64,000 bases of DNA from Gammaproteobacteria bacterium (GCA_965116495.1 OZ220696.1:992001-1056000); one strand, 5' to 3'; positions 20,857 through 50,571 are shown, numbered from the stretch's first letter. Translations and numbers: made by a program. Notes: generated by a model from the letters alone, not told the origin.

Positions 20857-21534
20857 TCAGATCCCTCCAGTCAATACATTTCTGTCTATCTGGATGAATT
20901 CCACCGGTACGCCATTGTGTTCAATAAACCCCACCACTAATCCTGGAGTGGGGCTATTGGGCTCAATTATTATTTTCTTATTTTTTACAGCTTCTTCCAC
21001 ATCATCTACTTCAAAAGCAAGATGTGGTAGATGTTTTACAATCTCCGGATATGGCGCTTTCTCATCATATCTAACCCAACCAACTCGATACATGTTCTTA
21101 GGATCATTGACATACATATTTAAATCTTCAAGGTGGACATCGCCCTCCCTTTCAATTTCCGTTGGAGTCCAGAACGAATGGTATTTATACTCTGACGTGT
21201 TTCTACGAGCACTCGTGATATCTTCATCCATCTGGATGAGTTGTATTGGCACATCATCAACTTCAATAAATGCAGTAACCACCCCATCGGATGGACTAAT
21301 AGGCCCGATTAATACTCTTCGTTTATTGATTTCAGCGCCAATGTTTTCAACTTCAAAAGCTACGTGCGCCACAGTTTTTATAATTTCAGGGTATGGAACC
21401 TCATCTTCATACCTTACCCACGCAACGCCATAAGGATCCTGTTCATAACCGCTAACATACATTCTTAAGTGAGAAAAATAAGTTTCGTTCAGCAGGCATG
21501 CTTTGGTCGGAATGCCAATATGATGGTATTTCAA
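20857..21534 (-). CDS. Tandem-domain VOC/glyoxalase-like protein (HHIGIPT type)
   Basis: Two repeats of YH..PT..WVRY..YPEI.K..H(V/L)AFEV. Confidence 0.8.
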   Translation of the reverse strand: MKYHHIGIPTKACLLNETYFSHLRMYVSGYEQDPYGVAWVRYEDEVPYPEIIKTVAHVAFEVENIGAEINKRRVLIGPISPSDGVVTAFIEVDDVPIQLIQMDEDITSARRNTSEYKYHSFWTPTEIEREGDVHLEDLNMYVNDPKNMYRVGWVRYDEKAPYPEIVKHLPHLAFEVDDVEEAVKNKKIIIEPNSPTPGLVVGFIEHNGVPVEFIQIDRNVLTGGI

Positions 21535-21572
21535 CTCTCTTTCGCCTTGTAACCTGTTTGATGTTCAAATTT

Positions 21573-22439
21573 TCAGGCTGAATCCTGCCAGAAGCCTGGC
21601 CCCTTATACTCTAGAATTCTGGCGCCCTCTTCCAGCGAATCCTGATCATCCCTCGCTGTACTGTAATACAACTTCTTCGATATAAATGGCGTATTTGTCC
21701 TGTACAGCGCGGCGAAGGTCTCTGCCATTTTCAAGGTAACCGCCGTAACGTTCAGAATCGGCACACCATCCACTTCAGTGAGGCCATTTGGATACTCATT
21801 TTCACATCCTGGCGCCATTCGTAGACAGGTATCTGCGAGCATGCATCCAGGGATGATTATCTCCGCACCTCTCACTATCAACTCCCTGCTCACTTCTATA
21901 AAACCATCTATGTTTGGGCGGGCGTCTGTCAGTGCATTCACCTGATCTTCAAAACTGCACCGGATACCTATAGCGCCAACTGATTGCTCTTTCAGGTAAT
22001 ATTTATGAATAAGTTCTTCTACACTCCATTGTGTTTTTTCACTGGTGGTCACCACCCCGAACTTCGCACCCATCATGGTAGCCATTTTCATGCAGGTCTC
22101 TGCCGGACACACCAACGGGATATTCATCACTTGCCTGCCTTCCCGCATGACGGGATCGTAAAAACACCAGCCGATCACAGCATCAAAGTCTCCAGACTGA
22201 TCCATATGCATGTAACCGTGGAGTGTTTCCATGTCATTCAACGTATTCATATACGCATACTGAAACGCACCAAAGCCGTCCAGGCCGATCCTGGGAAACC
22301 GGAAGATAATTTCCGTTCCTTCCGATTTAACCAAATGCATGTTCTTACGGATCAACGAGTTCATATCTGTCGCGTATTGAGCACCTTCGGTTCCTTCTTC
22401 TGCGGGAAGGGTGTGCATGACGCCGATTCTGAGTTTCAT
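21573..22439 (-). CDS. Asp/Glu/hydantoin racemase family protein
   Basis: Catalytic Cys motifs WCFYDP and IIPGC; VDGVPILN. Confidence 0.85.
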   Translation of the reverse strand: MKLRIGVMHTLPAEEGTEGAQYATDMNSLIRKNMHLVKSEGTEIIFRFPRIGLDGFGAFQYAYMNTLNDMETLHGYMHMDQSGDFDAVIGWCFYDPVMREGRQVMNIPLVCPAETCMKMATMMGAKFGVVTTSEKTQWSVEELIHKYYLKEQSVGAIGIRCSFEDQVNALTDARPNIDGFIEVSRELIVRGAEIIIPGCMLADTCLRMAPGCENEYPNGLTEVDGVPILNVTAVTLKMAETFAALYRTNTPFISKKLYYSTARDDQDSLEEGARILEYKGPGFWQDSA

Positions 22440-22579
22440 GTTTATTTCTCCTGTGTTAAGGACTAGCTCATAATTGGCTGTTGTGATTTAATTTGTGCTA
22501 CAGACCTGAGAATCGAGTTGAGCAAACTCCAATCTCACATACTAAAGAAAGATTGTACGTCCAGTATTTATTGCTTTTG

Positions 22580-48512: not shown

Positions 48513-50161
48513 GAGTAAATCACCTGTTCACTGAACCGTCTGAGTACGTTATGGGTTATTCTTTCTGTGAAGACATCACGTCGTTTAAGCCCAAGCGACC
48601 ACAAGCACGACCCCGCATTAACCACCTCGCCTTTTCCACGCCGGTAATGCACTACCATTCCGGAACTGTAGCGGACTTTCCTGAGATTTTCCGGACTATC
48701 ATCGCCATACAAGGCCTTGGCAACGATGCGGGCATCCTCGTTCAGCCACCAGACATTTGACAGTGGATTACCATGATCTTCTTCCAGTGTCACTGCCGGC
48801 GCCATGGCCAGAATTTCAATCTGATCAACCGGAGCGCCATCCTCACCTGTCGGATAAGGTAATCCTTCCTTGAAAGTGTAACTCAACCCGTCTACTTCAA
48901 ATCCGAAAATGCCGGCATCAGCGCCGAATACATCACCGTAGTAAAGATCGGTTCCAGCGAAAACCCAGTGGTTCGGACGGTACACGGTAAAACCGCCGGA
49001 ATGTCTCGGCGCCATCGCACCCATACGGGCATAAAGTCCTCGTGTGCCGTTTAAGCCCAAAGTGAGCGCTCCCGGGCGGCCCAGTACCCGATCATCCCAG
49101 ACACAGGTCAGCAGGTGCTTTTTCTCCGGATCATCACGAACCGGGTCCTGTTCGTGGGCCAGAAACTTGTATGAAACCTGGGTGTTTCCCTTGTCTTCCA
49201 GGCGGATTTGCCAGAAGAAATTACCGCCAAACCGTGCTACGCGGCCACCTCTGTCGACATATGCATCTATGGCATCACGCATGGGCGTAGACCAGTATTC
49301 ATCATGGCCTGCGATCACCACAGCACTATAATCATCCAGGTTAACGGTACCGAAATGCAGGTCATGCTGGGTCATATAATCCAACTGGTAACCTTCTTTT
49401 TCCGCCCATTTAACAAGCAAACTGTCGTATTCCGCATAGCTGCCGCCGACGTACCATTTGGAATATCCGTTACCCATAGCCCAACTGAAAAATGGAATAT
49501 CCACCGCCCAATCCGGGGGAATTTCCCGCTCATGACTAGCATGAGGAGCACCCTCAGGTAATCGCACACAGCCTCGATGCCAGGGGCGCTGGATGGAAAG
49601 CTCAGGCGAAAAACTCTTCTGATTATCTCCTGCTATTCCCTGATAAAAATTTGCTCCTCCCCATTCGTTATAGGCAATCCAGGTACTGGTCGCAAACAGC
49701 ATCAACAACCTGGCTTTATTCCGGTTGTCTCCAGCGGGCCGGATGATGAAGATATGGTGATGTTCTCGTGTGGCGCCCGTCCCATTTTCAACACGTGAAG
49801 TTACCACGTAAGGACCGGACTGCAGCCCCTCGGGAATAGTCCAGGTATGTGTTACCGGCCAACCTGCCCCCACTGCGTAGGCATTGTCCGGAGTAACCGG
49901 CATCGTGCCGGGCAATCCGGAAACTTCATATACTTTTTCAGTAACATATCCATCCCGAACTATTTCCAGGGAATATGTCTCAGCGCTGGCATAGACATGA
50001 AAATTTACCTCGTCCCCGGGGGCATAACTGATGTGGTCGGTATAGGTCCAGACTTCCAGGATTTCCGCATCGTTACTGGGGAATTCATACCAGTGACTGT
50101 CAGTGGCATAGTTGCCGGATTGGCCTATACGAAATCCGTATTGCTCCAGCGAGGGCGCCAT
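48509..50161 (-). CDS. N,N-dimethylformamidase large-subunit family protein
   Basis: TWIAYNEWGGANFY, GHDEYWS, GGN..WQIR, GFEVD, ITHNVL. Confidence 0.8.
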   Translation of the reverse strand: MAPSLEQYGFRIGQSGNYATDSHWYEFPSNDAEILEVWTYTDHISYAPGDEVNFHVYASAETYSLEIVRDGYVTEKVYEVSGLPGTMPVTPDNAYAVGAGWPVTHTWTIPEGLQSGPYVVTSRVENGTGATREHHHIFIIRPAGDNRNKARLLMLFATSTWIAYNEWGGANFYQGIAGDNQKSFSPELSIQRPWHRGCVRLPEGAPHASHEREIPPDWAVDIPFFSWAMGNGYSKWYVGGSYAEYDSLLVKWAEKEGYQLDYMTQHDLHFGTVNLDDYSAVVIAGHDEYWSTPMRDAIDAYVDRGGRVARFGGNFFWQIRLEDKGNTQVSYKFLAHEQDPVRDDPEKKHLLTCVWDDRVLGRPGALTLGLNGTRGLYARMGAMAPRHSGGFTVYRPNHWVFAGTDLYYGDVFGADAGIFGFEVDGLSYTFKEGLPYPTGEDGAPVDQIEILAMAPAVTLEEDHGNPLSNVWWLNEDARIVAKALYGDDSPENLRKVRYSSGMVVHYRRGKGEVVNAGSCLWSLGLKRRDVFTERITHNVLRRFSEQVIYS

Positions 50162-50163
50162 AA

Positions 50164-50571
50164 TCAAGCCGGCTTTCCCTCATCCATCGTTGCTTCCCTC
50201 CAGAGCAGATATTTCCCATCTTTTCCTCGTTTCAAGACTCCCTGGAAGCGACCCTTATCAAAAACTGTCTCCCCTCCCTGTCTTGGCGTCAATGCCAGGG
50301 TAAAACGGCCATTCACGAACAGAAAATCGCCGGCTTCAACAACAACGTCATCATGTACTTCGGCAAACCTCGCATCATACTGGGCCCAGATTTCGCGAAA
50401 CAGCTCGCGTGCCGCAGCGCGCCCTCCCAGTGTAGGGACACCATTGGACGTCAAGATAAAATCCTCAGCAAAATGATCCACCAGCCGCAAATCTGCGGCA
50501 TTATAGGCATCCCTTTCCGCCTTACGGTATTCTTCAAGCCCCTTAAGAGCCTCAGCAGATGCTTGTCTCAT
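50164..50571 (-). CDS. SnoaL/DUF4440 NTF2-like protein
   Basis: AYNAAD..HFAED..GRAA..GRF..KRGKDGKY. Confidence 0.75.
   Translation of the reverse strand: MRQASAEALKGLEEYRKAERDAYNAADLRLVDHFAEDFILTSNGVPTLGGRAAARELFREIWAQYDARFAEVHDDVVVEAGDFLFVNGRFTLALTPRQGGETVFDKGRFQGVLKRGKDGKYLLWREATMDEGKPA

Follow-up and report, generated by a model that had tools for sequence, protein, structure and literature searches.

The 22 minus-strand open reading frames at 20857-50571 of the window (the whole stretch of DNA analysed, 64 kb) constitute an island that is likely a horizontally moved regulon of an aquatic bacterium; its new part is a TetM-like translational GTPase with a clade and a loop III of its own. 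To judge from the encoded proteins, the role of the island is quite probably catabolic. In the reading that we place first, and to which we give about even weight, the regulon imports and catabolises either a basic amino acid in modified form or a cation resembling a polyamine, and an accessory GTPase and two Bcr/CflA transporters limit the effect of this compound on translation; for the GTPase by itself, a protective role is slightly favoured.

The island sits between a tRNA-Cys gene, the integration target, and a tRNA-Leu gene, with a duplicated tRNA-Cys 3' end at its right junction (Table 1); in the congener G006 the corresponding Gly-Cys-Leu site is empty. At 49.8%, its GC content is below the 54.7% of the whole genome. 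The search for an integrase within the island turned up nothing beyond an IS3-type rve remnant, and an Rfam scan of the window returned three tRNAs and nothing else. ORF calls, tRNA borders and a genome-wide motif scan recovered what an earlier, sequence-only reading had named, namely genes, island and promoter motif; the minus-strand run stands as well, and its count of 21 is corrected to 22, the total of its own list once the AraC regulator is included. The host genome (G000) has 60 TonB-receptor loci and 22 hydantoinase-A loci, so that uptake combined with C-N catabolism is ordinary for it.

Table 1. Features of the island and its borders, in window coordinates.
Feature	Position	Strand	Basis or remark
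tRNA-Leu, other flank of island	20254-20340		tRNA scan
Duplicated tRNA-Cys 3' end, right island junction	about 20360..20386	-	repeat; empty site in G006
VOC2a, tandem HHIGIP-type VOC	20857..21534	-	domain match
Hydantoin/allantoin-racemase-family protein, two Cys motifs	21573..22439	-	domain match
Putative operator motif before racemase	22578..22613	-	motif scan
AraC regulator, PF12625 N-domain	22703..23740	-	QhpR/GliR-like, under their cut-offs
VOC153, glyoxalase-family VOC, H/E/H/E motifs	23830..24291	-	domain match
Fold-III PLP decarboxylase, DAPDC/DokD fold, member of neither	24355..25824	-	structure and motifs
Putative operator motif before decarboxylase	25896..25931	-	motif scan
VOC2b, tandem HHIGIP-type VOC	26037..26759	-	paralogue of VOC2a; no Pfam match
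GPH-like MFS symporter	26970..28346	-	domain match
TonB-dependent receptor 1 (TBDR1)	28361..30700	-	domain match
VOC177, His ligand motifs absent	30720..31253	-	domain match
Putative operator motif before VOC177-TBDR1-GPH	31405..31440	-	motif scan
Single-domain HHIGIP-type VOC, predicted metalloenzyme	31589..31954	-	VOC2a paralogue, no Pfam match; VOC fold
30-codon remnant, KstD-like FAD oxidoreductase	32354..32443	-	intact in G022; contig of run X13 spans it
Bcr/CflA-family MFS transporter 1	32469..33692	-	TIGR00710, 210.2 vs 200.9
Amidase-signature amidase	33700..35142	-	domain match
FAD-dependent amine oxidoreductase, DAO family	35166..36578	-	TIGR03329-like, under cut-off
Hydantoinase/oxoprolinase B	36587..38371	-	domain match
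Hydantoinase/oxoprolinase A	38371..40473	-	domain match
SDR oxidoreductase	40485..41297	-	domain match
Tet-like translational GTPase, distinct clade	41492..43372	-	626 aa from ATG at 43372; overlaps Bcr2 end
Bcr/CflA-family MFS transporter 2 (Bcr2)	43362..44591	-	TIGR00710, 210.6 vs 200.9
Terminator-like hairpin and U tract, between TBDR2 and Bcr2	44598..44628	-	z -4.41
TonB-dependent receptor 2 (TBDR2)	44707..46968	-	domain match
Putative operator motif before TBDR2	47052..47087	-	motif scan
GS-like ligase, Phe at Glu-flap position; predicted gamma-glutamyl-amine ligase	47133..48512	-	GS catalytic domain
DMFase-beta-like protein, predicted amidohydrolase	48509..50167	-	PF20254
SnoaL-like protein	50164..50571	-	domain match
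tRNA-Cys, integration target, left junction	51086..51156	-	tRNA scan

Four copies of a 36-bp motif lie in the island and none in the rest of the genome, with scores of 38-40.5 at these sites against 19.5 at the best other genomic position. In a leave-one-out scan every site ranked within the top 4 of 8,682,248 genomic positions, the four having been picked by eye and regular expression and two of them lying in a duplicated 110-nt upstream stretch. The motif is conserved in congeners, and a related site precedes the decarboxylase gene of G163, a genome from another order with 37% GC. The AraC protein is likely the cognate regulator of the regulon, its pairing with the motif being a prediction. 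The SnoaL-DMF-GS genes have no strong motif site upstream, and the terminator-like hairpin parts TBDR2 from Bcr2 and the GTPase, so that co-induction of the GTPase enters our model as an assumption; a scan for sigma-70 promoters and terminators over 31200-51100 gave counts no higher than in shuffled sequence.

Syntenic copies of the island are carried by four congeneric genomes, one of them as contig fragments only, with 22 (G022b), 18 (G022a), 18 (G020) and 17 (G010) of the 22 genes kept; G163 keeps 16 of the 22 in shuffled order and adds PuuD-, SpuC- and PuuC-like proteins, an acyl-CoA ligase, a thiolase, a CoA-transferase and a carbon-nitrogen hydrolase. The homologues thus co-occur in other genomes as had been anticipated, and this co-inheritance, with the confinement of the motif to the island, bears out the view of the genes as one co-regulated unit. 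The enzyme set and the accessory genes differ between copies: BKACE is added in G022 and G020, SpuC also in G020, and G006 has a row decarboxylase-VOC153-SpuC-PuuD-AraC. There and on a plasmid of the cultured Halioglobus pacificus the decarboxylase module occurs without GTPase and pumps, and the 'protect' element of the scheme first proposed (import, protect, degrade) is therefore accessory rather than core; the gene set for import and degradation stands. The G163 genome yielded no DMFase-like protein, nor did the 114 kb of it examined yield the hydantoinase or the FAD oxidase, and these enzymes may therefore serve a second substrate. As the relatives carry the labels of free-living genera, a derivative of an amino acid or polyamine that is widespread in nature is a likelier substrate than a host-specific alkaloid. 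A literature search, made up mostly of titles and the beginnings of abstracts with few subscription papers, yielded no paper on the GTPase clade or the gene cluster.

The commonest gene of the module among relatives encodes the decarboxylase, which has a predicted fold-III PLP structure with the catalytic Lys and Cys motifs; its best folds are DAPDC and DokD (about 22-23% identity to the latter), yet it stays below the cut-offs of both LysA (218 bits, cut-off 297.9) and DokD (115 bits, cut-off 700) and has invariant motifs of its own, TCNxE and DTSEVFLG. A preference for a D stereocentre is suggested by the fold and the neighbouring racemase. Members of the family occur widely among ordinary marine heterotrophs, mostly without the GTPase; they were found in none of 301 genomes from the order of G145 and none of 261 from the genus of G947.

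The flap of the GS-like ligase reads DIFAP, as compared with GFEAP in the GlnA of the genome; according to the accessible text of PMC5403932, which also describes excess polyamine as toxic, ligases of the PauA7/GlnA3 type are recognised by the loss of this Glu. The score against the PuuA model NF045547 is 163 bits, far under the cut-off of 650. Partners for gamma-glutamylation are encoded in the G163 cluster (PuuD, PuuC, SpuC) and elsewhere in the host genome (PuuD, SpuC). The PuuD, SpuC, PuuC, thiolase and BKACE proteins of relatives favour catabolism of a decarboxylase-made amine by gamma-glutamylation over biosynthesis; together with the flap they uphold the catabolic direction and the gamma-glutamylation initially proposed. 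The only PDB matches of the DMFase-like protein are partial ones to N-acetyl-beta-phenylalanine acylase; a role for it in place of PuuD was rejected, a PuuD-like protein being encoded in 5/5 genomes tested. Both Bcr transporters belong to the Bcr/CflA subfamily by cut-off and may be drug exporters; among the related models matching them are those of PunC, a nucleoside transporter, and FslD, an importer. Blt offers a precedent, being a multidrug transporter with spermidine among its export substrates, in the part of PMC11998418 available.

From these proteins we infer the following order of reactions. The TonB receptors and the GPH symporter would import the compound; the hydantoinase pair, the amidase and the DMFase-like hydrolase would open a cyclic or acylated form of it; the racemase would provide the D form, which the fold-III enzyme would decarboxylate to a diamine. 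The GS-like ligase could then gamma-glutamylate one amine and either the FAD oxidase or SpuC take off the second, with PuuC and PuuD completing the route, and the SDR, BKACE or thiolase and the CoA enzymes would handle the carbon chain. The GTPase, finally, may bind the A site as TetM does and clear the cation with its own conserved domain IV tip.

This GTPase has an EF-G-like domain layout with intact G1-G4 motifs, and in a FastTree phylogeny of 61 sequences, with the two EF-G homologues of the genome as root, it falls on the Tet side, apart from EF-G, in a monophyletic clade. Its best NCBIfam match is NF012153 tet_protect, at 568 bits under the 775-bit cut-off, and its best PDB matches are TetO and TetM; identity to TetM, TetO, TetS and TetB(P) is 33-40%, and among 72,556 plasmid records there was no match above about 40%. 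Loop III reads KYDLGT, of a pattern, [KR]YD[LM]GT, that is present in 36/36 full-length clade members and 0/77 other full-length matches; in TetM-type proteins it is YSPVST, with P509 at C1054 (accessible parts of PMC8161019 and PMC4750697). The C-terminal extension with its helix, important for TetM function in what is available of PMC4750697, is absent from the island protein, and the tail measures 3-10 aa in the clade (33/36 measurable) against 32-43 aa in 67/77 others; the comparisons with TetM and TetO loops and tail draw on parts of PMC4750697, PMC8161019 and PMC4342817. Of the earlier label TetM-like, the Tet-side position and the G motifs remain; by loop III, extension and cut-off the protein lacks the sequence hallmarks of tetracycline protection and is not a canonical TetM. 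Its domain IV tip is nearly invariant though clade members share 46-97% identity overall, in keeping with a specific contact to a ligand or to rRNA.

The tie between GTPase and pathway proposed at the outset is also borne out: 7/10 distant members are linked to the decarboxylase against 0/28 controls, by a proxy that takes equal contig size as the same contig and in which the seven proteins represent 6/9 distinct sizes. By this proxy the GTPase is rarely present without the decarboxylase; the decarboxylase pairs with the clade in only 8/36 matches on contigs of at least 30 kb, so that protection seems unnecessary for catabolism. The GTPase occurs in 1/401 genomes from the family of G142 and in 0/401 from the order of G145; genome and metagenome scans from its alignment, with generic motifs, gave no clade member among the matches listed, which leaves G163 as its sole direct distant context. 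We propose, more tentatively than the main reading, that the ligand of this Tet-branch GTPase is not tetracycline but a cationic nutrient or natural antibiotic obtained by scavenging, which it removes from the decoding site as import and destruction of the compound proceed through the same regulon.

The alternative that survives best, though we consider it unlikely, has a catabolic pathway with a GTPase that is not protective, being either a passenger or a translation factor with a specialised task, in an island assembled as a mosaic of modules that share a single regulator. It is consistent with the decarboxylase modules that lack the GTPase, with the missing extension, and, for the mosaic, with the shuffled gene order and variable accessory genes; it is harder to reconcile with a GTPase seldom seen without the decarboxylase, a link kept in another order, and a tip so nearly invariant in an otherwise divergent clade.

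Less probable still is the strong form of the sequence-only reading, in which the cell both resists and eats a genuine antibiotic that targets the ribosome and has a basic or beta-amino-acid core, of the negamycin or streptothricin kind. A GTPase of the Tet branch whose A-site-facing tip is remodelled, and whose gene is translationally coupled to that of a Bcr/CflA transporter, would fit this, as would several amide hydrolases and the BKACE of relatives (an enzyme that cleaves beta-keto acids, as in beta-lysine catabolism); the decarboxylase family is nevertheless common in ordinary marine heterotrophs, and the VOC proteins look like enzymes. Four of the five VOC proteins keep His and Glu metal-ligand motifs, albeit not all four residues in every domain, and for the one of the five that was modelled the nearest folds are Ni-glyoxalase I and methylmalonyl-CoA epimerases (Z 8.2-9.3), with a mitomycin binder at Z 5.1; their earlier assignment to resistance is accordingly weakened, leaving VOC177 as the one candidate metal-free binder. 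An Atlas search returned VOC clusters only, none of them named. Substrates considered without gaining support were negamycin, streptothricin, hydroxylysine, methylated arginine, long-chain polyamines and sponge hydantoins.

We regard it as improbable that the island directs the biosynthesis of a ribosome inhibitor, GTPase and pumps serving in self-resistance: a ribosome-protection-like gene does stand together with efflux-family pumps, SnoaL, SDR, GS-like ligase and amidase, and BtrK of butirosin synthesis has the fold of the decarboxylase, but no NRPS, PKS, ACP or precursor-supply gene is among the 22 ORFs, two TonB receptors and a symporter stand behind the shared motif, and the enzyme set, which varies between copies, is extended in relatives by the degradative proteins PuuD, PuuC, thiolase and CoA-transferase. 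That the GTPase and the pumps confer ordinary resistance to tetracycline or to multiple drugs, their genes having landed in a catabolic island, is very improbable, despite the best database matches and the names given to some clade members, in view of the sub-cut-off score, the low identity to Tet proteins, the lack of closer plasmid matches, and a loop III and C-terminus that differ in all full-length members tested.

Displacement of tetracycline is the sole role described for Tet proteins in the literature searched, and a conserved clade whose tip is different and which goes with a single catabolic enzyme offers a way to ask about other roles of Tet-type GTPases. If the proposal of a ligand other than tetracycline is true, ribosome protection also serves catabolism, and many genes annotated tetM in aquatic metagenomes do not confer tetracycline resistance; over-calls in resistome surveys are flagged as well, public databases naming clade members tetracycline resistance proteins. 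The regulon further points to a nitrogen compound on which marine heterotrophs and the bacteria of a sponge metagenome draw, and for which the AraC protein and the four-site motif could be a ready biosensor.

Among known systems, the Tet proteins (TetM, TetO, TetB(P), OtrA) share with the GTPase the EF-G-like layout, the G motifs and the side of the tree; they differ in loop III (YYSPVSTPADFR against xKYDLGTxxxD(F/Y)K, which is one residue longer), in a loop I that is shorter in most clade members, in the distinct loop II of the clade (IY-x-KFxKQIP), and in possessing the extension, and the island protein is set inside a catabolic regulon. Drug-sequestering VOC proteins (bleomycin and mitomycin binders) are recognised by the lack of an H/E/H/E metal site, unlike four of the five here. 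The Bcr pumps can be likened to Blt of B. subtilis, a multidrug transporter paired with the acetyltransferase BltD whose natural job is polyamine export, although Blt belongs to another transporter subfamily and another phylum, and has no GTPase beside it. The ATP-dependent A/B pair and hydantoin-type racemase of hyuABCE and CapAB are also present, but the pair falls under the CapA and CapB cut-offs, no carbamoylase accompanies it, and it was not found in the G163 cluster. The Salmonella OrnR-DokD operon combines a racemase and transporters with a D-Orn/D-Lys decarboxylase (accessible text of PMC13397332), the same three kinds of protein as in the island; against the likeness, its racemase is a PLP ornithine racemase and that of the island a Cys-type hydantoin racemase, the decarboxylase motifs of the island are its own, and its hosts are aquatic heterotrophs. 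With the Puu/Pau route (E. coli PuuABCD, P. aeruginosa PauA1-7/SpuC, S. coelicolor GlnA3) the island shares a ligase devoid of the flap Glu and an FAD oxidase, the PuuD, SpuC and PuuC partners likewise being present in related clusters; unlike that route, the one predicted here would be fed by a racemase, a fold-III decarboxylase and TonB uptake, and is accompanied by a translational GTPase.

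The cassette is real, mobile and in all likelihood catabolic, its genes co-regulated through a motif private to it. Its reading as a system of import and degradation is well supported by genomic context; a protective role, resting on a Tet-like translational GTPase and two Bcr/CflA pumps, is plausible but unproven. It consists of 22 ORFs (not 21, as first counted), all on the minus strand, whose families match those listed in the sequence-only reading. It is placed between tRNA-Cys and tRNA-Leu, with a GC content of 49.8% (genome, 54.7%) and a duplicate of the tRNA-Cys 3' end at its far side; in the congener G006 three tRNAs stand directly side by side as an empty site, bearing out the tRNA-Cys island proposed earlier. 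No integrase was found inside it. The 4.34-Mb host genome, a single contig, holds 60 TonB-receptor and 22 hydantoinase-A loci, so that combining uptake with C-N hydrolysis is nothing unusual for it. Among 4 of 22 listed sequencing runs that were compared, one labelled sponge metagenome (X13) spans 30/30 bins of 31200-51199.

Features with coordinates (window positions unless a contig is named)
Position	Strand	Feature
1486-12930		Catabolic-looking group: two amidohydrolases, Rieske protein, acyl-CoA dehydrogenase-like monooxygenase, GST, TonB receptor, MFS, esterase
16316-19996		Three tandem tyrosine recombinases (16451-19900) flanked by 90-nt perfect inverted repeats, just outside the island beyond tRNA-Leu; resembles a RIT element
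near 20360		Displaced tRNA-Cys 3' copy, ending with CCA
20857-50571	minus	The 22 island ORFs
44592-44700	minus	Two 37-nt imperfect repeats with alternative pairings, then, close ahead of the Bcr2 start by a few bases, a terminator-like hairpin; kept in 5/6 genus copies
51086-51156		tRNA-Cys, the genome's only one, without encoded CCA
55528-57420		RTX-repeat protein with PPC domain
59313-61463		PP2C phosphatase adjoining a short, possibly split Ser/Thr kinase ORF
elsewhere in window		Three PIN-domain genes
G000:C1:984058-985695		Acyl-CoA ligase of the source genome, 6 kb ahead of the window; shares 62% identity with its counterpart in the G163 cluster
L196:19995-22187 (CP019045.1)		Halioglobus decarboxylase-SDR fusion; its neighbours are three DMFase-like paralogues and one gene of amidinotransferase fold

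The GTPase occurs in 5 of the 23 genomes of the genus and is absent from the other 103 of the order; the DMFase-like gene is found in the same five, and the decarboxylase, a fold-III PLP enzyme, in 5/126 genomes of the order, G006 replacing the fragmented G007. At 45% identity or more, the cassette copies in congeners, which are kin rather than independent, keep 22/22 genes (G022b), 18/22 (G022a and G020) or 17/22 (G010), with gene order unchanged and chromosomal neighbourhoods different. Two GTPase alleles about 66% identical are present in G022 (L009-L010, L018), and G007 likewise has two copies. Most genes of the window cassette are 93-99% identical to G022b, but its GTPase is of the G022a type (93%, vs 66% to G022b; 41492-44591 compared), which suggests that cassette copies may have recombined with each other.

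Outside the order, 16/22 island genes recur in shuffled order in G163 (37% GC), which encodes the GTPase match P0015 (NCBI label for this protein's source, Colwelliaceae bacterium) and is the only carrier among 401 genomes sampled from its family; the set includes the GTPase, both pumps, 4/5 VOC proteins, decarboxylase, racemase, the glutamine-synthetase-like ligase (GS), both TonB receptors and AraC. With 17-22 of 22 genes in the congener copies, the homologues do occur together, the co-occurrence for which a search had been proposed. As a proxy for linkage, longest contigs of exactly equal length were taken as shared between the best 120 of 728 GTPase matches and the best 120 of 687 decarboxylase matches, using distant clade members (P0015, P0019-P0039) on contigs of at least 30 kb and leaving out the alleles P0016-P0018 as well as three near-identical fragments. 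By this proxy 7/10 distant GTPases share a decarboxylase contig (6/9 distinct contigs), against 0/28 in the control; the reverse relation is weak (8/36), and in two places, G006 and plasmid CP019045 of Halioglobus pacificus, decarboxylase, VOC153 and an AraC are present but the GTPase is not. The GTPase therefore depends on the pathway, not the pathway on the GTPase.

The shared promoter motif noticed earlier proved to be a 36-bp element private to the island, with four sites, upstream of TBDR2, VOC177-TBDR1-GPH, the decarboxylase and the racemase. These score 38-40.5, the best site elsewhere in the genome 19.5, and on leave-one-out each ranks within the top 4 of 8,682,248 positions; the seed sites were selected visually, two of them from a duplicated upstream stretch. 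The sites are kept in G022, G020, G010 and G007, and a related one (score 27.2) precedes the G163 decarboxylase; no strong site was found upstream of SnoaL-DMF-GS. Since motif and regulator are co-inherited, we infer that the island AraC binds it. A terminator-like hairpin stands just before Bcr2, the second pump, in 5/6 copies within the genus, and together with the preceding repeats it could form an attenuator for Bcr2-GTPase.

The direction of the pathway is indicated by genes that its relatives add: PuuD-, SpuC- and PuuC-like genes, acyl-CoA ligase, thiolase, CoA-transferase and a carbon-nitrogen hydrolase in the G163 cluster; decarboxylase-VOC-SpuC-PuuD-AraC as a single run in G006; BKACE in G022 and G020, and a KstD-like flavoprotein in G022. 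PuuD and SpuC lie elsewhere in the host genome, PuuD 72% identical to its G006 counterpart and SpuC 86% to that of G020. The flap position is Phe in the island GS and Glu in GlnA; the island pattern matches that of PauA7 and GlnA3, reported without the flap Glu (PMC5403932). The decarboxylase model (pLDDT 92) matches the folds of DAPDC and DokD, the enzyme itself scores below the cut-offs of both families, and the racemase is of hydantoin type. Taken together, these features favour breakdown, via a diamine, of a basic amino-acid derivative that may be cyclic or acylated, through reactions that are each putative. Besides the decarboxylase-SDR fusion, the Halioglobus cluster holds a carbamoylase-type hydrolase, an amidinotransferase-fold protein and three DMFase-like genes; the fusion with the last two kinds as neighbours hints at a guanidino substrate for that cluster. 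The labels of relatives (Luminiphilus, Vibrio, Amphritea, Marinobacterium, Porticoccaceae and Sphingorhabdus) speak for a compound that is widespread and against an alkaloid specific to a host. In G020 and G006 an acyl-CoA ligase gene similar to that before the window lies next to the cassette.

The proposed resistance role of the VOC proteins does not hold up well: 4/5 keep the His and Glu ligand motifs, and for the one with a structural model (pLDDT 92.5) the closest folds are those of Ni-glyoxalase I and methylmalonyl-CoA epimerase (Z 9.3-8.2, against 5.1 for a mitomycin binder). With the exception of VOC177, they are more likely pathway isomerases or lyases. The 2653-aa protein P0493 matches the HHIGIP-type VOC domain over 11 stretches. 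Both pumps score above the Bcr/CflA cut-off, in a family that also has non-drug transporters; polyamine export has a precedent in Blt (PMC11998418).

Among the best 120 of 728 GTPase matches, 39 at 46-97% identity are set apart from those at about 40%; 36 full-length ones form one clade with the window protein (support 0.967, 61-sequence tree), on the Tet side. GTPase motifs are intact, and silent differences outnumber residue-changing ones (123 to 50 codons against G020; 56 to 42 against G022a), the G020 counts being consistent with purifying selection. A literature search found no published description of the clade or the gene cluster. Other Tet-like branches (P0040-P0120, alignment A2) have loops III of their own (HHVWHTHP, SIELATKP, DHVLHSRS) with the tail retained, and may likewise act on non-tetracycline ligands. 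Displacing another molecule from the ribosome is an EF2-family theme (PMC4342817). It is quite possible, though less likely than not, that a nutrient other than tetracycline is the ligand which this Tet-type GTPase serves. The TetM likeness first noted stands for its architecture and its place in the tree, not for loop III and the tail, which PMC4750697 and PMC8161019 describe, the tail as a C-terminal helix, as key for tetracycline release. Loop III reads [KR]YD[LM]GT in 36/36 clade members and 0/77 other full-length matches among those best 120, and the tails measure 3-10 residues (33/36 measurable) vs 32-43 (67/77). The protein is thus Tet-like in architecture but should not be classed as a tetracycline resistance protein: aligned with TetM, TetO and TetB(P), it differs in the three domain IV loops and stops directly after domain V.
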